A stretch of DNA of 64,000 bases from NCBI GenBank assembly GCA_039806955.1, contig JBDHQI010000015.1, forward strand, positions 33,437 through 97,436, in the 5' to 3' direction. Below, one piece after another: positions 14,128-49,186 of the stretch; position 1 is the first letter of the stretch, and each line of letters opens with the position of its first letter. This DNA is from Verrucomicrobiota bacterium (GTDB lineage Bacteria; Verrucomicrobiota; Verrucomicrobiia; Limisphaerales; JADLHS01). Position numbers and translations under genes: made by a program. The notes beneath the pieces were generated by a model, which made no database searches, was not told the DNA's origin, and saw only the letters and a list, made by a program, of their open reading frames with translations.

Positions 14128-14297
14128 AGGGCGTCCTTGGCGGCGAATGTGCAGGTCGTGTGCCACCAGAAATTTCGTCAGGGTTCACGCATCCGAATCA
14201 ACTGTCATTCCGCAACAACCCTGATGAGAAGCGTCGCGTGGCGGGGTAAATGAAACTTGGCACTGTCGTCGCGTTTTGGTTTCCTGCCCGCGCCCGA

Positions 14298-16496
14298 ATG
14301 AAATGTTACCGCGTCGCCACGCTCGCCCTGCTGTTGATCACAGGTATGGTCGGCGGCGCGTTTGCTCAGGAAGATCCCGGACTGGAATTACAGGGCGACC
14401 AGGTGCTTTTCATTCGCACGAACAACACCGCCATTATCACCAACGGCACGGTCACGGGTTTGGGCGGAATCCTCACCGCTGATCGCGCGGTGGTGAATAT
14501 GCAGACCGGCGACATCGAAGCGGAAGGCCATGTGCGCATCCAACGCGATAACATGACTTGGGCCGGGGAAAGCATCCGCTACAATTTCCGTACCCGGCAG
14601 ATGCGGGCCGCGCAATTTCGCACCGGGCGCGCGCCGTTTTTTGCGGGCGGTGAGGGCTTATCCAGCGATCGCGCTTCCACCACCAACAGCGTGTATTCCG
14701 CTCAACACGCTTTTCTTACGACCGATGACGTTGCTGATCCGGGACTGCGGATTCAGGCCAGTTCGTTGAAGATCGTTCCCGGTCAGTATTTTCAGGCGCG
14801 CAATGCCGTGCTGTATGCCGGCTCCGTGCCGGTGTTTTATTTTCCATTTTACACGCAGCGCCTGGACGGCAAGGGACACCATTTCGATTTTGTCCCCGGC
14901 TATCGCAATCGCTACGGCGCGTATTTGTTGAGCAGTTACAATTGGGCGTGGCGCGAGGAGCTGGATGGCAAATTGCGTCTGGATTACCGCACCAAACGCG
15001 GCGTGGGGGCCGGTACCGATGTGAACGCGCATCTCGGTCCGTGGGGCGAAACCACGGTGAAGTATGATTATTTGCACGATTTGCGCCCGGACATTGGCAA
15101 CCCCGGTTACAACCTTCCGGCGGATCGGCAGCGCGTCTGGTTCAGCTACAACGCGGCCCCGACGACGAATTTCACCATCAAATCCCAGGTGCGCTATCAA
15201 ACCGACGAGCGCATCGTCCAAAACTTCTTTGAAAGCGAGTACCGCGAAAATTCGCAGCCCAGCACCTACGTGGAGATCAATCCGCATACGGATAATTTTT
15301 CCGTCAGCGTTTACGCGCAACCGCGCCTCAACGAGTTCTTTGAAAATGTGGAGCGTTTGCCGGACGTGCGGCTGACCGGGTTTCGCCAGCAAGTTCTCAA
15401 CACGCCGCTCTATTACGAGAGCGAAACCTCGGCGGGCTATTATCGCCGGCGGTTTGCCGTGACCAACGACGTGGTGGCAGGCGCGAATTATGCCGGGATG
15501 CGGGCGGATACGTTTCACCAACTCACTCTGCCGCGCACATTCTGGGGCTGGCTGAATCTTGTCCCGCGCGCCGGTGGCCGCTTCACGTATTACGGAGATG
15601 CCACCGGTCCGGGCGCGACGACGGATGAGTTGGACCGCACCGTTTTCAACGCCGGCGGCGAACTCACTTTCAAAGCGTCGCAGACGTGGGCGGGCGAAAC
15701 CAATCGCTGGCTGGCCTTGGATGGTTTGCGCCACATCATTCAGCCCTCCCTCAATTATGCCTATGTGAAAACGCCCAACCATCGCCCCGGCGAACTGCCG
15801 CAGTTTGACATGGAACTGCCCAGTCTGCGCCTGTTGCCGCTGGAGTTTCCGGAGGACAACGCCATTGATGCCATTGACGGCGAAAACGTGATGCGGTTGA
15901 GTCTGCGCAATCGTGTGCAAACCAAGCGTGACGGACGCATCCAGGATTTCCTCTACTGGGATGTTTATGCGGACTGGTTCATCAACCCGCGTTCCGGGCG
16001 CGAAGATTTTTCCGACCTGTATTCCGATCTCGTCTTCCGACCGCGTTCCTGGATTACGTTGGAATCCATGAACCGTTACAACGTGCGAAGCGGACTGTTA
16101 CGCCTGGCCTATCACAATCTGACGTTACAACCGAACGAATGGTGGAGCTGGGGCATCGGGCACATCTACGTGCATGACGATTTCAGCGCGAGTCCGACCG
16201 CGTTGCAGGCAGGCAACAGCTCATTGATCAGCACTCTTTTTTTGCGCGTCAATGAAAACTGGGGTTTCCGGGCGCAGCACCAATACGAAGTGCGGGAAAA
16301 CTGGCTGCAACAACAGACCTACTCGATTTACCGCGACCTGCGCAGTTGGACGGCGGCGCTGGCGTTTCGGGTGCGCGATCCGCACAACGGTGAAGGCCGG
16401 GACTTTGCCGTGGCGTTCACCTTCTCGCTCAAAGCCGCGCCGAAAACGAGCGTCGGCGAAGATGCCATTCGCGAAACCCGGTTGCTGGGGTATTAA
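14298..16496 (+). CDS. lptD: LPS-assembly outer membrane protein LptD/OstA family
   Basis: ATG 14298 gives signal peptide MKCYRVATLALLLITGMVGGAFAQ. An N-terminal OstA-like beta-jellyroll (LQGDQVLFIRTNNTAIITNGTV...TADRAVVNMQTGDIEAEGHVRIQRD) is followed by a ~600-aa aromatic-rich beta-barrel region. Confidence 0.75.
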   Translation: MKCYRVATLALLLITGMVGGAFAQEDPGLELQGDQVLFIRTNNTAIITNGTVTGLGGILTADRAVVNMQTGDIEAEGHVRIQRDNMTWAGESIRYNFRTRQMRAAQFRTGRAPFFAGGEGLSSDRASTTNSVYSAQHAFLTTDDVADPGLRIQASSLKIVPGQYFQARNAVLYAGSVPVFYFPFYTQRLDGKGHHFDFVPGYRNRYGAYLLSSYNWAWREELDGKLRLDYRTKRGVGAGTDVNAHLGPWGETTVKYDYLHDLRPDIGNPGYNLPADRQRVWFSYNAAPTTNFTIKSQVRYQTDERIVQNFFESEYRENSQPSTYVEINPHTDNFSVSVYAQPRLNEFFENVERLPDVRLTGFRQQVLNTPLYYESETSAGYYRRRFAVTNDVVAGANYAGMRADTFHQLTLPRTFWGWLNLVPRAGGRFTYYGDATGPGATTDELDRTVFNAGGELTFKASQTWAGETNRWLALDGLRHIIQPSLNYAYVKTPNHRPGELPQFDMELPSLRLLPLEFPEDNAIDAIDGENVMRLSLRNRVQTKRDGRIQDFLYWDVYADWFINPRSGREDFSDLYSDLVFRPRSWITLESMNRYNVRSGLLRLAYHNLTLQPNEWWSWGIGHIYVHDDFSASPTALQAGNSSLISTLFLRVNENWGFRAQHQYEVRENWLQQQTYSIYRDLRSWTAALAFRVRDPHNGEGRDFAVAFTFSLKAAPKTSVGEDAIRETRLLGY

Positions 16497-16596: not shown

Positions 16597-17001
16597 ATGT
16601 CCGAGATCGCTAAATTTGTCAACATCGGCGCGGCGAGCATCACGCCCGGCATCGCCGAAAAGGTCTTGCGATTTTTGCCGCAGTGGAAGCTGGAGTTCAC
16701 CCAGATCAACGCGCCGTTGTTTCCGCATTTGGTGGATCAACTCGCGTTTCTTGCGGATCTCGTCGAGGACGTCCTCGAAGGCGTCTATAAGGAATTGCCT
16801 TATTCCACCCTGGCACAAGCCGTGTTCGCCTTAGTTTACGCGCATAAAAAGGTCGGCATCATTCCGGACAGTGTGTTGAGCCTGGGCTACGCCGATGATT
16901 CCAGCGTGGTGCGCGCGGTACTCATTCAAAACGAAAAGCCGCTCGCCTTCTACGCGGGTTCGCAAGGCCTGGATTGGAAGAAAATTACCAGTCACCCCTG
17001 A
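16597..17001 (+). CDS. Hypothetical protein, DUF1232 (YkvA)-like
   Basis: 134-aa ORF. The segment VGIIPDSVLSLGYADDSSVV resembles the DUF1232 iPD...G..DD motif. Confidence 0.5.
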   Translation: MSEIAKFVNIGAASITPGIAEKVLRFLPQWKLEFTQINAPLFPHLVDQLAFLADLVEDVLEGVYKELPYSTLAQAVFALVYAHKKVGIIPDSVLSLGYADDSSVVRAVLIQNEKPLAFYAGSQGLDWKKITSHP

Positions 17002-17037: not shown

Positions 17038-18297
17038 TTAATGCTCCGGTCGGGCGGCGCCCCAGATTTGCTCGGCCAGGCGTGACTTCTCGGCAAATTC
17101 CGTATTGAGTTCCGGCAACGAGCGTGCGGGAGCGGTCGGCAGGTGCAAGGTGAACGTGGTGCCTTTGCCGTCCACGCTGTCGGCAGCGATACGTCCGCCG
17201 TGGTGGTGGACGATGAAAAAGCAGCCCATCAGATGAATGCCGTATTCAGCGGGATCATCCATTCGCACCATGAACGGATCAAACAGATAACGCAATTTTT
17301 CTCTGGAAAGTCCCGGGCCATTGTCGGCGATTTGCAATTGCACTTCGGGCCGTTCCGGATTTTCGTAGTGCGTGGTCCCGGTAAAAGTGATCTGACTGCC
17401 ATCGGGTAAACTGGCCAGTTCCTCCCGGAGCAGCAAATCGAACAGGCGCTGGAACTTCGCGCGCTCGGCAGTGACCACCGGCAGGTCTTCGGGGATTTGA
17501 TTTTCGATGCTGATTTTCTTTTCCGCGATCAGCGGCTGCAGTCCCTCAGTGGTTGCCGCGAGCAACTGGCGCAGGTGAATCTTCTCGGTGGTTTGCGTCG
17601 CCGGTTTTTCCGCCGCCGCCCACAGGGCTTTGAGCAGATCGTTGATCTTGTCAATCTGACCCAGCACGCTTTTGTGATAGTCCGTCCAAAATTCCTCGTG
17701 ATGAATCTTGTCCGGAGCGGTTTTTTCATCCCGCATCATTGCGGGGGCGAGTTCGAGGAAGGTTTTGACCGTCACGAGGGCATTGCGGATGTGGTGGCTG
17801 AGGCCGGCGGTGAGCATGCCGAGACTTACCAAACGATCCGCAATCAACAAGTTGCGCAGAGTCTCCATTTTCTCCCGCAGCAACCGTTCATTTTCCCGCT
17901 GCAACCAGAAGAACTCCATGGCGCGCTTGAGTTGCGCCTCCAGATAATTGGGGTCCCAAGGTTTGGTGACGTAGTGGAAAATGCCCCCGGCATTGATGGC
18001 GGTGACTGCGTCATTGAACTCGGTGAAGGCGGTGACCAAAAACCGCAGCGTGGCCGGACTGACCTCCTTGGCGCGCTGCAACAGCCAGGTGCCCTTTTCT
18101 CCCGGCATACGTTGATCGGTCATCAAAATGGCGACCTCGTCCTTGTGTTCCTGCAACAGGCGGAACCCATCCTGCGCGTTGGTGGCCGTCAAAATGCGAA
18201 AGTCATCACCGAACGCGCGCGCGAAGGCTTTCAACGATTTTTCCTCGTCGTCCACATAGATTACCTGAAATTTGCGATAATCGTATTTTTCAGCCAT
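17038..18297 (-). CDS. Response-regulator receiver fused to a HisKA/HATPase-like module (PhcR-like architecture)
   Basis: Receiver: VIYVDDEEKSLKAF, phospho-acceptor context ILMTDQRMPGEKG, HYVTKPWD. C-terminal half: H-box-like GLSHHIRNALVTVKTF and ATPase-like IADNGPGL ... FDPF. No DNA-binding output domain. Confidence 0.85.
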   Translation of the reverse strand: MAEKYDYRKFQVIYVDDEEKSLKAFARAFGDDFRILTATNAQDGFRLLQEHKDEVAILMTDQRMPGEKGTWLLQRAKEVSPATLRFLVTAFTEFNDAVTAINAGGIFHYVTKPWDPNYLEAQLKRAMEFFWLQRENERLLREKMETLRNLLIADRLVSLGMLTAGLSHHIRNALVTVKTFLELAPAMMRDEKTAPDKIHHEEFWTDYHKSVLGQIDKINDLLKALWAAAEKPATQTTEKIHLRQLLAATTEGLQPLIAEKKISIENQIPEDLPVVTAERAKFQRLFDLLLREELASLPDGSQITFTGTTHYENPERPEVQLQIADNGPGLSREKLRYLFDPFMVRMDDPAEYGIHLMGCFFIVHHHGGRIAADSVDGKGTTFTLHLPTAPARSLPELNTEFAEKSRLAEQIWGAARPEH

Positions 18298-18312
18298 AAA
18301 ATTGGGCGCGCG

Positions 18313-19731
18313 TCAAACGGGATGCGGAAATTCCAAGGTAAACTCGCAATACTTTCCGGCCTCGGAACGCACCGAGATTTTGCCTTCACATTCCTGCATG
18401 ATGCGATAACAAATGCTCAACCCCATGCCCATGCCCTCGCCGACGTCCTTGGTGGTGTAGAACGGGTCAAAGATTTTGTCAATGTGCGCGGTGGGAATGC
18501 CCGGGCCGTTGTCGCGGACAACAAGGTAGCTGGTCTGCGGGGTTTCCCGCGCTTCAATCCAGATCGTGGGCGCTTCGCCATTGGCAAAAGCCTTGTGGCG
18601 CATCGCATCCAGTGAGTTTTGAATCAGGTTCACGAAGACGTGGATCAGTTTATTTTTGTTGGCGCGAACGGACAGGTGATCCGGCAGTTTGAGTTCAATG
18701 GCCGCCTGATCCTTCTTTTCACTGCTCAAAAATCGTAGCGCCGACGTGGCGACCTCTCCGACGTCAACGGTGTCCAAATGGTCGGTGGACGGATGGGTGA
18801 AAACGCGCAAGTCGGAGACGATGTTTTTAACGCGCTCGACGCCCGCTTCAACGTCCTGCAAAATTTCGGTGTATTCCTCCTGTTGTTCCGATGCGACGTG
18901 GCGCGTTTTCTTTTTCAATGTGAACAGACTGGTGGCGACAAAATTCAACGGGTTGTTGATCTCGTGGATAATGCCGGCGCTCATGCGGCCCAACGACGCC
19001 ATTTTTTCCGATTGGATGAGTTGCGATTCGGCTTCGGTCAGTTTTTGGATGGTATCGGCCAGTTCCTTGTTTCGCGCATCGAGCTGCAAATTATTTTGTT
19101 GCAAGGAGCCTTGACTCTCGGACAGTTGGTGTCGCAGCGAAAATTCGTGGAAGCGCGATTTGCTGTGAAAATAACTGCCCGTGACCACAATGATGCCAGT
19201 CAAACTCAGAAAATAAAGGTTGTTTACGAGCGCACCCAAATTTTCATTGGTTGCTGTTTGAAATCCATCATGCGCAAAACTAGCCACCAAGTATAACACA
19301 ATAACCAGCGTTGACGCGGCGAAGCTTTCCCAAAACGTCCAGTGCAACACGAAGGCCAATACGAGCAGCACCAGATTTAATCCAGCATAGTAGGGCGACC
19401 CAGCGCCTTCCGTTTTGGCGATCATCCAAGCGATGAACGAAGTCGGAATCATGAATAGAACAATGCCGAGAAAACGATAGTGACGCCGCCCCAGCTTGGT
19501 CAACAAGACGGCCAGAAAGGCGCCGATCAATACCGAACTAAGCAAGCGCGCTTGTAGAAAATGAAACTGCTCAGCGACGCGGGGATAGACGTAGCGATCC
19601 AGAATGAAACCGGCGGGCATCAAGATCATGCCGAGGACGCAGGCAATCTTGAAGTTGTTGATGGTCTCCTGCTGATCATAAGCGGCGAAGGCTTTTAGCA
19701 GCGATGTGTCGTTTGAGTGTGATTCAGCCAT
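18313..19731 (-). CDS. Polytopic membrane sensor histidine kinase (PhcS-like position)
   Basis: About six hydrophobic helices lie in the first ~200 aa, followed by a coiled coil, H-box MSAGIIHEINNPLNF and HATPase (VRDNGPGIP ... GEGMGMGLSICY). There is a 15-nt gap to the downstream receiver-kinase gene and an 8-nt overlap with the upstream methyltransferase gene. Confidence 0.9.
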   Translation of the reverse strand: MAESHSNDTSLLKAFAAYDQQETINNFKIACVLGMILMPAGFILDRYVYPRVAEQFHFLQARLLSSVLIGAFLAVLLTKLGRRHYRFLGIVLFMIPTSFIAWMIAKTEGAGSPYYAGLNLVLLVLAFVLHWTFWESFAASTLVIVLYLVASFAHDGFQTATNENLGALVNNLYFLSLTGIIVVTGSYFHSKSRFHEFSLRHQLSESQGSLQQNNLQLDARNKELADTIQKLTEAESQLIQSEKMASLGRMSAGIIHEINNPLNFVATSLFTLKKKTRHVASEQQEEYTEILQDVEAGVERVKNIVSDLRVFTHPSTDHLDTVDVGEVATSALRFLSSEKKDQAAIELKLPDHLSVRANKNKLIHVFVNLIQNSLDAMRHKAFANGEAPTIWIEARETPQTSYLVVRDNGPGIPTAHIDKIFDPFYTTKDVGEGMGMGLSICYRIMQECEGKISVRSEAGKYCEFTLEFPHPV

Positions 19732-21151
19732 GAGCGGATTTGCGCACTTCGACGATCAAGTTAACCTCAGTATCATCTCGATAAACGCGGCAATCACTCG
19801 AGAGTGCCTCGGGTGGGATCAAGGCGCGTCCTTGTGTGGTGTCGCGATATATCAAATGCCAGTCCAGCAGAAATTCCAGCATATGCTGGAAAGGTTTGCA
19901 GGCTACAACATTGGTGATCAGCAAAAGCCCGTCCGGCGCGAGCCATCGGTAAAAGATACTCATCAGTTGGCGGCAGGTTTTATCCGTCAGATAATCGAAA
20001 AGTCCGGCACAGTAAATATAATCGTATTGCGCCGTGTCCGTTTGGGTTTGTGCGCGTCCGCTTTCCTTGAAAACCTGTTGGATGGATTTCTTGACGATTT
20101 GAATCCTGGTTTGCCGGGTGTGTTTCTGGCGGGCCTCTTCAAGCCGCTGACCGGTGTGAGCGACGGTTTCGTCGTTGAAGTCCCACAACGTGAATTCCGT
20201 ATGATCGGACAACGCGCTTGCAGCCAGAAAAAGCTCAATTTCATGAGCCGGACCGCAACCCAAATTAAGCACCCGAACAGGACGGCGACGGCGTTCTCCT
20301 CGCAGGGCTTCCTCACCAAGCCGTGTGGTCAGATATTTGATGCGATTCCGATGGGCCTCGGCCGGCCATTGTTGGAGGAACCAACTGTTGAGCACCTGCG
20401 CGTAAAATGAATTCCCCTCCAACGGTTCACGTAGAATCATGTTCACCATTTCATAATCACCCGCGTAGCCCAGCGGTTTGTGAAACGTCCGATAGGCAAA
20501 CGGCGAACACATTACCAACGAGTGTAATTGTTGCCGGACAAAACTCGCGTGCATCGGTCGCAGCGGTTCGCTGATGGTCGCCCCGATTGCCTCAAACCGC
20601 TCGTGCAGTGAGTTGAAGGCGCGGATCATTTTCTCACTGAGGCCGCGTAAATATGCCTGCACCTCGATTGGTTGGTGCGTCGAAGCTTTTAGTTTGAACC
20701 CCAGTTCCAACCGATCCATCCAGCGCGCAAAATCGCGCAAGAACATTTGGATGTCGGTCACGGCGATTTTGAATTCGGGAAAAATGCGATAGGATTTCTG
20801 CCAGGCGCTTAAGAATGCGTCAAAATCCAGATGCTTGCTTTCTTGCCGTGCGTCCACCGCCAACGCTTCTTTAACGAATCCGTTTTCCTCCAATTCGATG
20901 TCGCTTGTCAGCGTCATTCCCGAGCCTACCAACCCCGCAACCGTGCCCCGCCCGATGTAGATTACGGAATCTTCGACGGTGATTTTCAGTTCTGGTAGAA
21001 CCTGGGAAACACGCAGGACAATGGACGGATCGTAAAATTCAGCGACAACACGAAAGCGCGTCAGCCGGGTGGCGGAAGCCGCAAACTCAATTCCATCTGA
21101 AGTTTTGCCGACGACCGCATGCGCTGAAATCTGGTTTGATTCTGTTGGCAT
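19724..21151 (-). CDS. Class I SAM-dependent methyltransferase with N-terminal beta-rich domain (PhcB-like position)
   Basis: SAM motif I VLNLGCGPAHE, DYIYCAGLFDYLTD, LAPDGLLLITN. ATG at 21151 is preferred. The track ORF extends to a TTG at 21235 with no Shine-Dalgarno sequence. Confidence 0.8.
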   Translation of the reverse strand: MPTESNQISAHAVVGKTSDGIEFAASATRLTRFRVVAEFYDPSIVLRVSQVLPELKITVEDSVIYIGRGTVAGLVGSGMTLTSDIELEENGFVKEALAVDARQESKHLDFDAFLSAWQKSYRIFPEFKIAVTDIQMFLRDFARWMDRLELGFKLKASTHQPIEVQAYLRGLSEKMIRAFNSLHERFEAIGATISEPLRPMHASFVRQQLHSLVMCSPFAYRTFHKPLGYAGDYEMVNMILREPLEGNSFYAQVLNSWFLQQWPAEAHRNRIKYLTTRLGEEALRGERRRRPVRVLNLGCGPAHEIELFLAASALSDHTEFTLWDFNDETVAHTGQRLEEARQKHTRQTRIQIVKKSIQQVFKESGRAQTQTDTAQYDYIYCAGLFDYLTDKTCRQLMSIFYRWLAPDGLLLITNVVACKPFQHMLEFLLDWHLIYRDTTQGRALIPPEALSSDCRVYRDDTEVNLIVEVRKSAHG

Positions 21152-21468
21152 TACGTTGAAACCTGCCGGTTGATTTGGCTGCGTGCCCGGCAGCCCTTCC
21201 TGATGACTATCTAACCGAAAATGACCGGCATACAAAGAGATATCAAATCTCGCGCCAATTTTAGCGCAAATACCGAGAACTTCACTTCAACGATGCCGCG
21301 AGCCACTTCGGCGATTTGGTTTCACTGGCATCTGGCCTGCTCTTTTGCTTCAGTCGTTCCAGTTGTGCCAGCCATCCAATAGTGTTGATGGCCGTGGCGG
21401 ATGCCAATGCGAATTCCGTCGACGGGAGAGGATTGCAGATTCAATCTGCGGTAGTAACCCCTGTAAAT

Positions 21469-22815
21469 ATGAACATACTCTTTAACCAAGATCGCCGGCG
21501 GAATCGTGCGGCCTGCCCGTCCTGCTCCCGCGAATACCTGATCGGGTTCGGGCTTCTGCTTTCATGGCTGTTGGCAAGTTCGTCCGTTTCTGAGGGATTT
21601 CGAAATCCGCCGGCCGGCGCCTTTAATTTGGGCCGGGCGGGCGGACGAATTGCCCATGTTCAAGACGCTACCGCCGTAACTCACAACCCGGCTAATCTTG
21701 TTGCCGCAACCAATTATCAAGCCCAGGCGGTTCTGGGTTTGGTTTATATGAAAGTAGCGCATTCCTCAGCGGCCCCCGGACAATCAGCGCAAACAGAAAA
21801 TCCGTGGAAGGTACTACCTGCAGCCTATTTCGCCACGCCGGTGTTGGATGATAAATGCGTATTTGGTTTGGGTCTCACCAGTCCGTACGGATTGAGCGTG
21901 GATTGGAATGAAACTGGTTCAAGCGCCTTTGCCGCGCCGGCTGGAACTTTGCGCTACACCTCTCCGCACTACACCGAGTTGATGACTTTGAATCTTAATC
22001 CAACCGTCGGCATCAAACTGACCGAAAGCATCTCCGTGGGCGTCGGTTTGGACATCATGTGGTCGCGGCTGACATTGAAACAGTTTTATCCGTGGGCAAT
22101 TTTTCCTGGTAGCAGCGGAACGGAACCTGATGGTCTGCTGCGCGGTGAAGGTGATGGCTATGGGCACGGCGGAAATTTGGGCTTCACCTGGAAGATTACG
22201 CCGCGTCAAACCGTCGCGCTTACCTACCGCTCGCAAATGGATGTGGATTTTGATGGAGACACACAACTGAGCAACATCACCCCGACGGCGACTGCCTTTG
22301 GGGTGACCGGACGCAGCTTGTTTGCCTCGCGCCTGGCGTTTCCGAACATCGTAGCCGCAGGTTATGGATTGCAAGTCACCGATCGGCTACGTCTTGAAAC
22401 AGATGTTGAATGGTTGCAATTCTCGCGGTTTAAGCGGTTGCCAATCAACATCGGCAACAACAATATTCTTCTTCCTGCGACCAGCCAAAGCGTTCAAGAG
22501 AATTGGCGCGATACTTTTACCATCGGCATCGCCGGCGATTATCGGCTTTCGGATAATTGGTCCGTTCGCGGTGGATATCAATACTATCAAAGCCCGGTTC
22601 CGGACTCGACTTTCTCGACTACTATTCCTGATGCTAATCAAAATGTGCTGACAGTCGGTCTGTCATATCATTCTGGTGCGCAAGCTGTTGAGCTTGGCTA
22701 CGGGGCGGATTTTTACGATCGCCGTAATTTGGTTGGCAACCAAAATCCTGCTTTTGACGGCAAATATAAAATCACTGTGCATCTGTTTTCCTTGAGCTAT
22801 CAATTGGCGTTCTAA
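21469..22815 (+). CDS. FadL/TodX (OMPP1) family outer-membrane hydrophobic-compound channel
   Basis: The N-terminal conserved stretch after the signal region (FRNPPAGAFNLGRAGGRIAHVQDATAVTHNPANL), alternating beta-strand pattern and C-terminal ...LSYQLAF are typical of FadL-family barrels. ATG 21469 was chosen inside track ORF 21316..22815. Confidence 0.75.
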   Translation: MNILFNQDRRRNRAACPSCSREYLIGFGLLLSWLLASSSVSEGFRNPPAGAFNLGRAGGRIAHVQDATAVTHNPANLVAATNYQAQAVLGLVYMKVAHSSAAPGQSAQTENPWKVLPAAYFATPVLDDKCVFGLGLTSPYGLSVDWNETGSSAFAAPAGTLRYTSPHYTELMTLNLNPTVGIKLTESISVGVGLDIMWSRLTLKQFYPWAIFPGSSGTEPDGLLRGEGDGYGHGGNLGFTWKITPRQTVALTYRSQMDVDFDGDTQLSNITPTATAFGVTGRSLFASRLAFPNIVAAGYGLQVTDRLRLETDVEWLQFSRFKRLPINIGNNNILLPATSQSVQENWRDTFTIGIAGDYRLSDNWSVRGGYQYYQSPVPDSTFSTTIPDANQNVLTVGLSYHSGAQAVELGYGADFYDRRNLVGNQNPAFDGKYKITVHLFSLSYQLAF

Positions 22816-22936: not shown

Positions 22937-24034
22937 ATGGCTGCCAGGTGCCAAATTCCGACCGCCAGGCCGGACGGGGAATTTAATCTCGTCACGGCGC
23001 TTCAAGCCTGTCTGTCGCCGGGTAACATCGTTATTGGATCGGCGGGAGAAGTTCTAACCTGCTCTTTGGAGGGCAGTGAATTTCTTAACCGGCTCGTCAC
23101 CCCGGGCATGACGCTTGCCGTACTGCCTGCGGCATTAGCCGATTTGGTCGCCCAGGCAAAAACCGCGCGCGCGACCATCACCGTGCCAGTTTTGAAATTG
23201 CACAATTCGGAGGACGCAGCGCGTCAGTTTCATGCGACTGCCGTTTTTCTCGCTCTCAGTTCTGGAGAATCCATCGTCATCCTCAACTTGACGGATATCA
23301 CCCGATTGGCTCACTGGCAAAAAAACCTCGAACAATTGGATCGGCTCGCCACGACGGGAACCCTGGCCGCCGGCATGGCGCACGAAATCAAGAACGCCTT
23401 CGTAGCGATCAAAACCTTCGTGGACTTGCTCGTCGAGCAGAATAAAAACGCGGAACTGACGGATTTGGTCCAACACGAACTGGCGCGCATCAACGCCATC
23501 GTCCGGCAATTACTCAAGACCGGCCCGGCGACGCCGGAACACGCACCCGTGCGGTTGCACGATGTCCTGGAGCACTCGCTGCTTATGGTGCGGCAGCAAT
23601 TGAGCGACAAACTGATTTCGCTGCATCGCAGCTTTGCGGCCACATCCGATGTAGTACGAGGTGATCCGCACCAGTTGGAGCAGGTGTTCGTCAATTTGTT
23701 GTTGAACGCAGTGGACGCCACGGGAGCGAATGGTTCGCTGACCGTGCAAACGGAATTTCTTGCCGCGACGACCTCGGAAATTTCAGAGCCTAAATTTGCC
23801 GGCCGGCCACTCGTGCGCGTCAGCGTGGCGGATACCGGGACGGGGATCGCTCCCGACACACTGGCGCGAATGTTCGAGCCGTTCTTCACAACCAAGAGCC
23901 ACGGGACGGGGCTGGGCTTGCTCATTTCGCAGCGCATTGTCGAGCAGCATCACGGCGCCATTCACGTCGAGAGCCAACCGAGCAAAGGCACGACCTTTCG
24001 GGTGATCCTGCCGTCCGGGCAACCGCAGGCGTGA
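22937..24034 (+). CDS. Cytoplasmic sensor histidine kinase (PAS-like N-terminus, HisKA, HATPase)
   Basis: H-box LAAGMAHEIKNAFVAIKTF. N/G boxes: NLLLNAVDAT, DTGTGI, FEPFFTTK, GTGLGLLISQ. No TM segment. Confidence 0.88.
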   Translation: MAARCQIPTARPDGEFNLVTALQACLSPGNIVIGSAGEVLTCSLEGSEFLNRLVTPGMTLAVLPAALADLVAQAKTARATITVPVLKLHNSEDAARQFHATAVFLALSSGESIVILNLTDITRLAHWQKNLEQLDRLATTGTLAAGMAHEIKNAFVAIKTFVDLLVEQNKNAELTDLVQHELARINAIVRQLLKTGPATPEHAPVRLHDVLEHSLLMVRQQLSDKLISLHRSFAATSDVVRGDPHQLEQVFVNLLLNAVDATGANGSLTVQTEFLAATTSEISEPKFAGRPLVRVSVADTGTGIAPDTLARMFEPFFTTKSHGTGLGLLISQRIVEQHHGAIHVESQPSKGTTFRVILPSGQPQA

Positions 24035-24040
24035 TCGCTC

Positions 24041-25015
24041 ATGGGCCGTTATCGCCTCGCGCTGGTCAGCGATATTCATTATGCCGGGGTGCGGGAGCAG
24101 GCGGAGGGCGATGATTTTGAATATCGTGATCTCAAAAATCCGCTGCTGCGCTTTCTGATCCGACAATACCGCTGGCACGTCTGGCTGCGTCATCCCCTGC
24201 GGCAGAACGGCCAATTCGATCGGTTTCTGGCGGAAGTTCCTCCGGTGGATTATGCCATCGCCAATGGTGATTATTCCTGTGACACCGGCGCGGTCGGTTT
24301 GAGCGCCGCCGCCGCCCTGGAAAGCGCGCGGGAAAGCGTCGGCAAATTGCGGCAAAAGTTTGATGACCGTTTGCGTCTCAACTACGGCGATCATGAACTC
24401 GGCAAACTGCGACTCGTTGGCGCGGTGGGTGGTATGCGATTGGATAGTTGGCGGCGGGCGCGGGAGGATTTGCAAATGCCGCCGCTTTGGCGGCTGGAGT
24501 TGGGCCGTTACGTCTTGTTTAATTGCGTTTCCTCGTTGATCGCGCTCCCGGCTTTTGGTGCCGACACGCTGCCGAAAGAGCGGGCTGGATGGGAACAGTT
24601 GCGTGCCGAACATTTTGCCCAGGTGCGAGACGCTTTTGCCGGGCTGCAATCGGGGCAACGCGCGCTGTTTTTCTGTCACGACCCGACCGCATTGCCGTAT
24701 CTCTGGCGGGATGAAGTTGTTCGCGCAAAACTTCCGTTTGTTGAACGCACGATCATTGGGCATCTCCACTCGAACTTCTATTTGCGCCTGAGTCGCGCGC
24801 TGGCCGGGATGCCGCCACTCAACTTTTGCGGCCATGCGGTTCGACGTTACAGCCGGGCGCTACGTGAGGCGCGCGGGTGGCGACCCTTCCGCGTATTATT
24901 GTGTCCTTCGCTCGCTGGAATTGAACTGCTCAAAGATGGCGGCTATTTCACGGTGGAGCTTGATGCGGCGGCGACGGTCCCGGCGCGGTTTCAATTTCAT
25001 CCGGTTCCGCGTTAG
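24041..25015 (+). CDS. Calcineurin-like metallophosphoesterase
   Basis: LALVSDIHYAG, ANGDYSCD, YGDHELG, FFCHDP, IIGHLH. It starts 6 nt after the kinase stop. Confidence 0.7.
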   Translation: MGRYRLALVSDIHYAGVREQAEGDDFEYRDLKNPLLRFLIRQYRWHVWLRHPLRQNGQFDRFLAEVPPVDYAIANGDYSCDTGAVGLSAAAALESARESVGKLRQKFDDRLRLNYGDHELGKLRLVGAVGGMRLDSWRRAREDLQMPPLWRLELGRYVLFNCVSSLIALPAFGADTLPKERAGWEQLRAEHFAQVRDAFAGLQSGQRALFFCHDPTALPYLWRDEVVRAKLPFVERTIIGHLHSNFYLRLSRALAGMPPLNFCGHAVRRYSRALREARGWRPFRVLLCPSLAGIELLKDGGYFTVELDAAATVPARFQFHPVPR

Positions 25016-47414: not shown

Positions 47415-48296
47415 ATGGCCAAAGCAATTCGAGCAACGCTATCTTCGCAACCCTTACAAGCGGAGCCGCTGCCGCGTCGCTGGCGAACCAAAGCGGGCTT
47501 CACCTTGATCGAGCTGCTGGTGGTCATTGCGATTATCGCCATCCTGGCGGCGATGCTGCTACCGGCACTCGGTCGCGCAAAATTAAAGGCGCAAGCGGCG
47601 ATCTGCCTCAGCAACGTCAAGCAGCTTAACGTGGGCTGGGCCCTGTACATCGGCGATTACAATGATGTCATGCCGCCCAATTGGTTGAACGATTCGCGGG
47701 CATGGATTGATGGGACCGTCGGCAGCGTTTATCAGTTGCCGGGAGCCACCAATCTTCTCGCGATCCGTCGCGGTCTGCTCTTTCCTTACAATCCCAACGT
47801 GGGAGTTTACCGCTGTCCCAGCGCCAAAGGTGGTCCAGTGTTGCCGCCGGCGCCAGCTAACATGCGGGCCGTGCAATTGGTGCGGCACTACTCGCTCGAA
47901 GGCCGGATGGGCGGTGCGGATCAGGGAACGGCCGCGAAGTATGGAGTCAGCGACACCAGTTGGGTGCTCGGTACGACCTTTCCGCAATACAAGAAGTTAT
48001 CCGAGGTCAAACGACCGTCGCCGGCAGAGGCCATGACGTTCATTGATGAAAGCATTGAGACATTGGATGACGGTTATTTTGCGGTCAATGCCACGGATCG
48101 CCTCAACCAGTGGCAAAATTCGCCGACGGTCCGGCATGGCAAGGCGGGGGTGTTGGGATTTGCCGATGGCCACAGTGAGAATTGGAAATGGCGGGCACTG
48201 GCGCGAGACAATGTGCTGGACGCGCCGTTGATTCAAGCGGGCGTCAATACCGAGGTGGATTTGCGGCGGTTGCAGCGCGCGGTTTTCCTGCGATAA
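47415..48296 (+). CDS. Prepilin-type N-terminal cleavage/methylation domain protein with H-X9-DG motif (pseudopilin-like)
   Basis: [25 protein letters not shown], and near the C-terminus [13 protein letters not shown] (H-X9-DG). Confidence 0.85.
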
Positions 48297-48403
48297 GGGG
48301 CACTGCCCAGGACGCGGAAATCCACCGAGGAGTGCGCGGCGTCATAAGTAAACAGAGTCGAAGTTGAGCAGACCCAAACGGCTTGAGTTGTTCAAAACAG
48401 TCC

Positions 48404-49186
48404 ATGAAAACCAGTGTTAAACGGGCCTTCACCCTTATTGAATTGTTGGTGGTGATTGCCATCATCGCCATCCTCGCCGCCATGCTCATGCCCGCCCTGG
48501 CCAAAGCCAAGGCCAAGGCCAAAGGCGTGCGGTGCGTGTCCAACATGAAAAATTGGGGCTTGGCGACCGTGATGTATTTGGGCGATAACGAGGATCGGCT
48601 GCCGCCCTTTGGCGATTTGTCCTCGGACTACACCAAGGATTTTTGGCACATGAAACTGGCCCCCTACGTGGCGCGTCGGGTTCAGCAGGGAGTCCAGTTT
48701 GGTCAAACCGATGTTTTCACCAACGAACTGCGCCAATGCCCCGGAGGCAGCTACGCCGCGCCGGAGTATTATCGAGGCGCATGGGATGGCAAAACTTGGA
48801 ATTGCTGGATCGGCGCCAACTTTGGCGCGTTTGGCGATCCGTTGAGCGGACCGTTTTATTATACCGATACCCGTCCGTCCTTGAAGGCCACGCGAGTCAA
48901 GAAGGCTTCCGACGCCATGCTGTTCATGGAGACCATCACGCATTATGTCTATTCACCAGTGCATAGCGGCTATCGTTTTTCATTGGATTTGGATGGCGAT
49001 GGCCGGCGCGACACCATGCCGCAGTATCCTGACGTACCATACAATTATGGCCGGCCCCGGGTTCATGATAATGGAGCGAACGTCACCCTGCTGGATGGGC
49101 ACGTGGAACGCGTGACTTTTGCCAAATTGTGGGCAACGGATGCTTCCGGCAAAGTGCTCCACTCATTTTGGTACCTGGAAGATTGA
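48404..49186 (+). CDS. Prepilin-type N-terminal cleavage/methylation domain protein with H-X9-DG motif (pseudopilin-like)
   Basis: ATG 48404 gives [33 protein letters not shown]-terminal [13 protein letters not shown] (H-X9-DG). Confidence 0.85.

Follow-up and report, generated by a model that had tools for sequence, protein, structure and literature searches.

The question raised by this locus is whether a member of the Verrucomicrobiota carries a signalling system of the Phc type. The Phc system has been studied almost solely as the virulence switch of a bacterial-wilt pathogen, and to our knowledge cell-to-cell signalling in Verrucomicrobiota, as in other phyla that abound in soil and freshwater but are poorly represented in culture, is essentially uncharted. 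The stretch analysed here (the window) comprises 64,000 nucleotides of contig JBDHQI010000015.1, in which a sequence-only reading had pointed to three adjacent genes as a candidate phcB-phcS-phcR-like cassette. The cassette, which lies in a Verrucomicrobiota-like genome, is a homologue of phcBS(R/Q) from Ralstonia and Cupriavidus, and we consider it probable that it serves Phc-type signal production and sensing.

Organization of the locus

Three co-directional ORFs were confirmed on the minus strand, at the coordinates first given for them. The first (19724..21151) encodes a PhcB-family methyltransferase and putative signal synthase of 475 aa, the second (18313..19731) a PhcS-type sensor histidine kinase of 472 aa, and the third (17038..18297) a protein of 419 aa in which a receiver is joined to a HisKA/HATPase-like module. 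The ATG of the kinase gene sits within the final codons of the methyltransferase gene (ATGGCTGA), giving the overlap of 8 nt already described, and the gap between the kinase gene and the third gene is 15 nt, also as described. This spacing suggests translational coupling of the trio, which we count for the Phc-type reading. The motifs quoted earlier for these genes (VLNLGCGPAHE, DYIYCAGLFDYL, LAPDGLLLITN, DQRMPG and KPW) were all present in the translations. Two methyltransferase starts had been left side by side, 21151 and 21235. The ATG at 21151 is the more likely one because the database cluster has a length of 475 aa and that Met is where the alignments of homologues begin, while the TTG at 21235 (19724..21235, minus strand, 503 aa) had no homologue support.

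The gene after the third gene is convergent and unrelated to the cassette. A second kinase (22937-24034) and a 324-aa phosphoesterase-like gene were considered as cassette members and rejected, since both are kept only in a close relative and are unlinked in distant loci.

Divergent from the cassette, on the plus strand, lies a gene for a FadL/TodX-type outer-membrane channel (21469..22815; Pfam Toluene_X, 4.9e-56; NCBIfam FadL, 2e-31). Its ORF opens at TTG 21316, and the likely start is ATG 21469, which precedes a signal peptide. The channel gene also adjoins the cassette in a Verrucomicrobiota relative of 73% identity, and a FadL-like gene was located at most 1.5 kb upstream in 25 of 48 environmental loci versus 1 of 80 betaproteobacterial loci. 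Because FadL is unlinked to phc in Betaproteobacteria, its proposed role draws no support from the model system.

The divergent intergenic region of 317 bp holds a conserved block (21237..21271, minus strand), which is nearly unchanged in locus L082 of the 73%-identical relative, while the flanking intergenic DNA has diverged. Inside the block there is a sigma-54-like -24/-12 element (TGGCGCGAGATTTGAT, 21242-21257), which precedes the ATG of the methyltransferase gene by 106 nt; the background rate of the motif is about 0.002 per 330 nt. The corresponding regions ahead of the methyltransferase gene did not contain it in 77 other environmental or in 69 betaproteobacterial loci. No sigma-54 activators or other transcription factors were found downstream in related loci, which instead had receiver-kinase or receiver-GAF-PAS proteins, and scans of sigma-70 promoters and terminators gave matches at chance level.

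The three proteins and their Phc counterparts

Reference operons were phcBSRQ of Ralstonia spp. and Cupriavidus, tied as orthologues to the operon of R. pseudosolanacearum OE1-1 by published protein sizes and by peptides encoded in OE1-1 primers (LAHELNT in PhcR; MTNPGGN versus MTNPGDN in PhcQ). A codon-degenerate OE1-1 phcB qPCR primer found nothing in the species-representative genomes that were scanned, and the plasmid collection yielded a phc-like cluster with a truncated PhcR on Paraburkholderia graminis pPHS1_P. Pfam and NCBIfam contain no models for PhcB, PhcS or PhcR and returned only generic names. Direct comparison with the reference proteins gave end-to-end matches for the first two proteins.

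The methyltransferase is colinear with Ralstonia and Cupriavidus PhcB across all three domains, with 34-36% identity over residues 6-468 of 475 (E 4e-93). The motifs KPLGYAGDYEM, AHRNR, GCGPA and YCAGLFDY are invariant and common to it and betaproteobacterial PhcB. In its AlphaFold model (pLDDT 85.8), residues 11-87 form a beta-barrel, residues 110-287 make up a helical domain, and a Rossmann fold covers residues 292-470. The barrel (20891..21121, minus strand; pLDDT about 90 there) bears out the beta-rich N-terminal domain that was proposed earlier, and it is PilZ-like: its top Foldseek PDB matches were nearly all PilZ domains (PP4397, BcsA, MrkH, YcgR and VCA0042; TM 0.61-0.67, E about 1e-3). 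Alignments of the barrel made no canonical c-di-GMP motifs (RxxxR, D/NxSxxG) visible, and Pfam PilZ gave no match in the protein. The helical domain (20291..20824, minus strand) is family-specific and holds most of the invariant family residues, namely H210, R221, KPLGYAGDY and AHRNR. The Rossmann domain (19742..20278, minus strand) is a class I SAM-binding domain, on which Pfam agrees with the earlier assignment (Methyltransf_12/23/25; about residues 311-462 of the 503-aa ORF), and its best Foldseek matches are the small-molecule C-/O-methyltransferases SgvM, AprA MT2, SibL and CurJ. A PDB sequence search gave no match at E<=0.01. The protein did not group with any named methyltransferase type, including the ubiquinone and cyclopropane-fatty-acid enzymes that might have claimed it (best NCBIfam match 27 bits, cut-off 180).

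In a neighbour-joining tree of 110 members, the 12 betaproteobacterial PhcB sequences were monophyletic, and the methyltransferase grouped outside them with the Verrucomicrobiota relative P0002. The methyltransferase belongs to the wider family defined by the common N-terminal 290 residues, but not to the narrow betaproteobacterial clade (PhcB of Ralstonia, Cupriavidus, Paraburkholderia and Oxalobacteraceae).

The kinase matches Ralstonia PhcS with 33% identity over residues 1-470 of 472 (E 5e-78). A hydropathy scan found six hydrophobic segments between residues 26 and 183, which agrees with the six-helix membrane sensor described earlier, and none in the methyltransferase or the third protein. 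This sensor domain (residues 1-215; 19087..19731, minus strand) is membrane-embedded without a sizeable periplasmic loop. Compared by itself it shares 31% identity with the sensor of PhcS (E 6e-21), and its conserved positions are common to the kinase and betaproteobacterial PhcS. Pfam identified HisKA and HATPase_c behind it; the H-box SAGIIHEINNPLNF (H256) aligns with that of PhcS, and canonical N, G1 and G2 boxes are present. Pfam MASE8 (PF20968) scored 11.3 bits in the kinase (E 0.41), below the gathering threshold of 26.2 bits. The kinase of the 73%-identical relative scored 21.4 bits and Ralstonia PhcS had no match. A distant kinship of the sensor with MASE8 is possible.

For the third protein Pfam agrees with the description of a receiver fused to a HisKA/HATPase-like module: it found Response_reg, a sub-threshold HisKA (21 bits) and HATPase_c covering profile positions 23-110 only. 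D16, D17, D61, T89 and K112 were kept in 30 of 30 orthologues, and His168 in 26 of 30. The proposed likeness to PhcR stands for architecture, operon position and full-length similarity (24% identity, E 1e-28), but not for the receiver, which is 45% identical to PhcQ versus 31% to PhcR; receiver and linker together match PhcQ with 39% identity over 186 residues (E 1e-38). Asp/Glu stands in place of the N-box Asn, which PhcR keeps, and the third protein has a degenerate G2 box. By these comparisons the third gene appears to combine a PhcR-like architecture with a PhcQ-like receiver and is not a clean PhcR orthologue.

Conservation in environmental relatives

A set of 80 metagenome loci was used for synteny, with counts covering the informative loci. 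A PhcS-like sensor adjoined the methyltransferase gene in 69 of 69 and an orthologue of the third gene was present in 26 of 26, so the trio occurred together in all informative relatives; the sequence-only reading had named a lack of such co-conservation as grounds for refutation. The sensor gene also followed the methyltransferase gene in all 79 betaproteobacterial loci. Because the same order recurs in all these loci, the arrangement is not due to chance.

The nearest relatives are environmental PhcB-family cassettes of 41-73% identity, with the gene order of the window and FadL often upstream. At NCBI the 73%-identical relative, whose synteny is identical, carries the label Verrucomicrobiota bacterium, which supports the Verrucomicrobia/Planctomycetes-type host that had been suggested; for distant members only the labels Verrucomicrobiota and Kordiimonadaceae were recovered. 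The family is large, with at least 1069 clusters (50% identity) and at least 596 species-level genomes, and the first 300 methyltransferase residues alone retrieve 1069 clusters at E<=1e-3. At NCBI its environmental methyltransferases are named "class I SAM-dependent methyltransferase", and homologues of about 50% identity carry the JGI name [quoted passage not shown]. Since the family is large and JGI already gives it the PhcB product name automatically, the claim that no Phc-type system is described in such hosts holds for the literature but not for the databases. A published survey limited to Proteobacteria found phc clusters in Betaproteobacteria only (PMC10653808). The distribution of homologues suggests that fatty-acid methyl-ester signalling between cells is far more widespread than Betaproteobacteria.

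In 35 of 52 loci the kinase has a long form of about 880 aa, with membrane sensor, kinase core, receiver and second kinase core. The window kinase and Ralstonia PhcS are of the short form, whose sensor leads straight into a core that matches the second core of the long form. We considered the long form as a PhcS-PhcR fusion and rejected it, because Ralstonia PhcS (E 5e-53) and the window kinase (E 5e-121) match the second core and not the first; in addition, the PhcR receiver is nearer to that of the third gene than to the internal receiver.

Explanations and comparison with known systems

Under the Phc-type reading, the cytoplasmic PhcB-family enzyme would turn a fatty acid, probably a 3-hydroxy one, into a hydrophobic methyl ester by methylating its carboxyl group. 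The product of Ralstonia PhcB is methyl 3-hydroxymyristate or methyl 3-hydroxypalmitate, and His230 of PhcS is required for sensing (PMC8578825, PMC11960443). Closely related Ralstonia strains differ in the chain length of the ester (PMC8578825), and therefore the product of the cassette is not readable from sequence. The ester may exit and re-enter across the outer membrane with help of the divergently encoded FadL-type channel, and would be sensed within the membrane by the six-helix sensor of the PhcS-type kinase, followed by autophosphorylation on His256. The phosphoryl group would pass to Asp61 of the co-transcribed third protein. Like PhcR and PhcQ, this protein has no DNA-binding domain and therefore must act by further phosphotransfer, possibly through His168, or by protein-protein contacts. 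The circuit would then be expected to behave in a density-dependent manner.

Several features count against the Phc-type reading. The proteins share no more than 24-36% identity with the characterised system, and the methyltransferase lies outside the monophyletic betaproteobacterial PhcB clade. No separate PhcQ gene and only one receiver domain were found within the 64-kb window, and OxyR tblastn found no LysR (PhcA-like) gene there (best E 1.1); as a positive control, the same search found LysR genes in betaproteobacterial loci at 1e-7 to 1e-11. The ATP-binding domain of the third protein also lacks both the N-box Asn and the canonical form of the G2 box.

Alternatively, the cassette might share phc ancestry and do another job. 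The enzyme might modify another lipid or a small carboxylic acid, and the kinase might monitor the state of the envelope or of lipids, or else a hydrophobic cue from outside that arrives via FadL, as a private homeostasis or foraging circuit and not as density-dependent signalling. The low identity to PhcB and the separate clade fit this explanation; so do the FadL linkage, which is specific to the environmental clade and concerns what is primarily an uptake channel, the missing LysR gene, and the neighbours in other loci, which are more phosphorelay proteins and not a PhcA-like regulator. However, strict coupling of a synthase-type enzyme to a dedicated membrane sensor (69/69 and 79/79) is a hallmark of producing and sensing, the sole characterised members are an autoinducer synthase and its sensor (PMC8578825, PMC11960443), and the invariant residues of the substrate-side helical domain are common to PhcB. 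We regard another job as rather unlikely, with a weight that still has to be reckoned with. It is very improbable that the enzyme is a CheR-like protein methyltransferase, which methylates the adjacent kinase or receiver and tunes its sensitivity with no diffusible molecule. A weak Pfam CheR match below threshold (E 3.7e-4, 20 bits, cut-off 27) and the tight coupling to the kinase gene speak for it, but the CheR N-terminal domain is absent, the closest structures are small-molecule enzymes, the kinase has no methyl-accepting (MCP-like) segment, and methyl 3-hydroxymyristate is what the homologous PhcB makes in Ralstonia (PMC8578825). That a generic class I methyltransferase came to lie next to an ordinary two-component pair by accident has a negligible chance of being the explanation: few bacterial domains are commoner than methyltransferase, HisKA/HATPase and receiver domains, and the database names are generic only, but the coding regions overlap or nearly abut, the synteny across distant lineages refutes it (69/69, 26/26, 79/79), and homology runs beyond the generic domains through the family-specific N-terminal 290 residues and the membrane sensor.

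If the Phc-type reading is extended to the whole family, Phc-type methyl-ester signalling might be an old and widespread module with which bacteria of soil and freshwater, in Verrucomicrobiota, some Alphaproteobacteria and many uncultured lineages, produce and sense a signal. In the form that looks ancestral there would be one receiver-kinase-like partner, later duplicated to give PhcR and PhcQ, along with a FadL gate through which the hydrophobic signal passes; the synthase would carry a PilZ-like regulatory domain. We offer this wider reading tentatively, as a possibility we would not yet lean on; if it is true, no dedicated autoinducer system would have been identified in Verrucomicrobiota before this cassette. 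If such cassettes make and sense fatty-acid methyl esters, these volatile esters would be a common type of soil signal, cross-talk with or eavesdropping on Ralstonia signals would be plausible, and the PhcR/PhcQ step would have a simpler model in the single receiver-kinase gene. Testable leads on signal trafficking and on the control of production come from the FadL linkage and from the PilZ-like domain of the synthase.

FadL handles long-chain AHL (acyl-homoserine lactone) signals in Sinorhizobium (PMC9938287), which likewise ties an outer-membrane FadL channel to a hydrophobic quorum signal. The role there was shown genetically with the gene outside the signal operon, whereas the tie here is one of genomic linkage. 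With Ralstonia and Cupriavidus Phc the cassette has in common the order of synthase, sensor kinase and receiver protein without DNA-binding domain. It differs from Ralstonia in having one receiver gene instead of two, a divergent FadL-type channel, what appears to be a Verrucomicrobiota host and a methyltransferase outside the betaproteobacterial clade. With CqsS/LqsS and LuxN (the Lqs system as described in PMC10653808) it shares the concept of a multi-helix membrane sensor without periplasmic domain that is paired with a dedicated synthase for a hydrophobic signal. Kinship with these sensors, however, was found for the kinase core only, the NCBIfam LuxN match covering kinase residues 222-469. 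The synthases of those systems are a PLP enzyme of the CqsA/LqsA type or an AHL synthase of the LuxM/LuxI type, while the putative synthase of this cassette is a methyltransferase.

The cassette and its phcBSRQ counterparts

The three minus-strand ORFs claimed by the sequence-only reading were present at the positions described: a methyltransferase gene (19724-21151), a kinase gene (18313-19731) and a third, receiver-kinase-like gene (17038-18297). The outermost start of the methyltransferase ORF is TTG at 21235; because the database cluster for the exact protein is 475 aa long and the homologues all align from the Met at 21151, the gene is likely 19724-21151. The kinase ATG (19731) lies within the final methyltransferase codons (ATGGCTGA), giving an overlap of 8 nt, and the kinase stop is followed after 15 nt by the start of the third gene. 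With Pfam, the first protein showed class I SAM methyltransferase domains, the second HisKA and HATPase_c, and the third Response_reg with a weak HisKA and a partial HATPase_c. The kinase sensor, proposed to have about six membrane helices, has six hydrophobic segments at residues 26-183. The G+C content was 0.52-0.53 across the cassette (18001-22000) and 0.56-0.62 in most of the window, and the dip could reflect either membrane-protein composition or old horizontal acquisition.

Pfam and NCBIfam contain no curated PhcB, PhcS or PhcR model, so actual operon sequences were needed as references. The operon of Ralstonia pseudosolanacearum OE1-1 was not found by a primer-derived pattern scan; a protein-guided scan of species-representative genomes gave 80 Burkholderiales loci, several Ralstonia and Cupriavidus among them. 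Their gene order was methyltransferase (464-470 aa), kinase (442-447 aa), receiver-kinase (368-371 aa) and receiver protein (335-340 aa), sizes which agree with those published for PhcB (464-468 aa), PhcR (368-374 aa) and PhcQ (336-337 aa) (PMC8578825). The receiver-kinase carries LAHELNT, the translated OE1-1 phcR primer, and the receiver protein begins MTNPGGN, where the OE1-1 primer encodes MTNPGDN. Since sizes and primer-encoded peptides agree, these loci are genuine phcBSRQ operons.

BLASTP against these operons bore out the proposed likeness to PhcB and PhcS over nearly the full span. The methyltransferase matched PhcB at 34-36% identity (residues 6-468 of 475, E 4e-93), and the kinase matched PhcS at 33% (residues 1-470 of 472, E 5e-78), with the membrane sensor alone at 31% (E 6e-21) and the core alone at 37% (E 5e-56). 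The motifs KPLGYAGDYEM, AHRNR, GCGPA and YCAGLFDY were invariant between the methyltransferase and PhcB. CheR-like protein methylation by this enzyme is unlikely. Invariant positions are also shared with PhcS in the sensor helices and the H-box, where kinase H256 aligns with H230 of OE1-1, a histidine experimentally required for signalling (PMC11960443).

The beta-rich N-terminal domain noticed in the sequence appeared in the AlphaFold model of the methyltransferase (pLDDT 85.8) as a beta-barrel (residues 11-87; 20891-21121, minus strand), followed by a helical domain (110-287) and a Rossmann fold (292-470). Nearly all top Foldseek PDB matches of the barrel were PilZ c-di-GMP receptors (TM 0.61-0.67), and a PilZ-like barrel is the predicted N-terminal fold in all PhcB-family proteins examined, in which canonical c-di-GMP-binding motifs were not evident. 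No description of this fold for PhcB was found in the literature looked at. Published work on Ralstonia places an adaptive PhcB mutation, R22C, outside the methyltransferase domain (PMC6989110).

Co-inheritance and spread of the family

Co-conservation of the trio in relatives was examined in 80 metagenome loci with a methyltransferase sharing 41-53% identity with the window protein, and it was found in every informative locus. A PhcS-like sensor starts less than 250 nt from the methyltransferase stop in 69/69 loci with enough DNA, and a receiver-kinase orthologue follows in 26/26. In the betaproteobacterial set of 80 loci, the methyltransferase gene is followed by the sensor in 79/79; PhcQ is encoded in 74/74 and a full PhcR in 59/74 (absent in 15/74). 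A chance neighbourhood of a methyltransferase and two-component genes is thus unlikely. Homology of the cassette to phcBS(R/Q), and its inheritance as one unit, are nearly certain.

Two forms of the kinase were found. The short form of the window and Ralstonia occurs in 17 metagenome loci, while 35/52 environmental loci encode a long form (about 880-950 aa) with membrane sensor, HisKA/HATPase, receiver and second HisKA/HATPase (for example L114 7427-10084, L098 7383-10049 and L140 7367-10219, among environmental loci L086-L165). The window kinase and Ralstonia PhcS both match the sensor and second core of the long form, a pattern expected if the short form had lost the intervening kinase-receiver unit or the long form had gained it by insertion.

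The family was searched among 1.84 billion cluster representatives using the first 300 methyltransferase residues, leaving out the generic SAM-binding fold. At E<=1e-3 this gave 1069 clusters (50% identity), of which 144 remained at E<=1e-30. In the scan of species-representative genomes, a relative is encoded in at least 596 species-level genomes. The phcB-like label does not extend to clade membership: in a 110-member neighbour-joining tree, betaproteobacterial PhcB formed one clade and the window protein fell outside it, in another, beside a 73%-identical relative. The 90% cluster of this relative includes NCBI HNQ72193.1, [quoted passage not shown], and its locus shares FadL, cassette, second kinase and ParC with the window. 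One further member carries the label of an alphaproteobacterial family, Kordiimonadaceae.

The third protein, PhcR and PhcQ

The phcR-like assignment of the third gene stood in part. The protein matched PhcR over its full length (24% identity, E 1e-28), but its N-box Asn and G2 box, which are canonical in PhcR, are altered. Across 30 orthologues, receiver residues D16, D17, D61, T89 and K112 are invariant and H-box His168 is retained in 26/30, whereas in the ATP-binding domain Asp/Glu stands in place of the N-box Asn and the G2 box is reduced to one Gly. The receiver and linker matched PhcQ at 39% identity over 186 residues (E 1e-38), and the receiver alone at 45% (E 2.7e-38). PhcQ aligns over these parts and lacks the H-box and ATP-binding domain, while PhcR retains the canonical boxes and carries a deletion in the linker. 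The simplest reading, we infer, is that one receiver-kinase gene resembling the third gene was duplicated and that its copies diverged into PhcR and PhcQ. In the phc-like cluster of the conjugative 494-kb Paraburkholderia graminis plasmid pPHS1_P, PhcR is a 134-aa receiver alone (L001 9715-10119); full PhcR is missing from other Paraburkholderia loci too.

Neighbouring genes, predicted function and known systems

A FadL/TodX outer-membrane channel gene (Pfam 4.9e-56) is divergent from the methyltransferase gene. Some 35 nt of conserved sequence (21237-21271, minus strand), lying 106 nt before the methyltransferase ATG, are near-identical in the 73%-identical relative and contain a sigma-54-like -24/-12 element (TGGCGCGAGATTTGAT; 21242-21257, minus strand). 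This element is specific to the lineage of these two, because the corresponding upstream regions of 77 other environmental loci and 69 betaproteobacterial loci lack it.

Beyond lie plus-strand genes for a soluble AtoS-like histidine kinase (22937-24034, 365 aa), for which the window encodes no separate cognate receiver, and, directly after it, a metallophosphoesterase-like protein (24041-25015, 324 aa); both adjoin the cassette in the Verrucomicrobiota relative and not in distant loci. Because the third cassette gene carries the sole receiver domain in 64 kb, the AtoS-like kinase might feed into its product. Convergent with the cassette is a 134-aa ORF (16597-17001, plus strand), kept in the Verrucomicrobiota relative and without Pfam or NCBIfam match. 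Two adjacent plus-strand prepilin-type proteins with a C-terminal H-X9-DG motif (47415-48296 and 48383-49186), one with a sub-threshold DUF1559 match, fit Verrucomicrobiota; together with a 748-aa LptD-like outer-membrane protein (14250-16496, plus strand), whose best NCBIfam match is the chlamydial CT351 family, they fit a PVC-group host.

The whole model, in which the cassette would make a fatty-acid methyl ester and the kinase would respond to it according to cell density, is in our judgement rather probable, drawn by analogy from the only characterised relatives. The main rival, that the same machinery serves another methylated lipid or a non-social sensing task, is considerably less likely. 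In Sinorhizobium, a part for FadL in the handling of long-chain AHL signals has been proposed from published work (PMC9938287), so it is reasonable that FadL may pass the hydrophobic ester across the outer membrane.

The divergent FadL linkage distinguishes the window and environmental loci from the Ralstonia system: 25/48 environmental loci have a FadL-like gene at most 1.5 kb upstream, against 1/80 betaproteobacterial loci. In Cupriavidus numazuensis, a YceI-like gene (L016 6028-6654, Pfam 9.7e-37) is directly upstream of phcB, and a similar ORF occurs in a second locus (L030). YceI-like proteins are a periplasmic family which binds lipids and polyisoprenoids; in Cupriavidus this other, putative hydrophobic-ligand protein takes the position of FadL in environmental loci. 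The Ralstonia system has separate PhcR and PhcQ, while the 64-kb window encodes just one receiver protein and lacks a LysR-type, PhcA-like gene. The phc cluster was described as having restricted distribution in Betaproteobacteria, in a survey of Proteobacteria only (PMC10653808), and other papers, PMC6989110 among them, mention no homologues outside Ralstonia, Cupriavidus and Paraburkholderia. No account of such cassettes was found in full-text literature on phcB with Verrucomicrobia or metagenomes. Although a Phc-type cassette outside Betaproteobacteria is undescribed in the literature found, homologues of about 50% identity, generic methyltransferases at NCBI, are auto-named with the PhcB product name by JGI, and we therefore regard the cassette as a variant of a known system.
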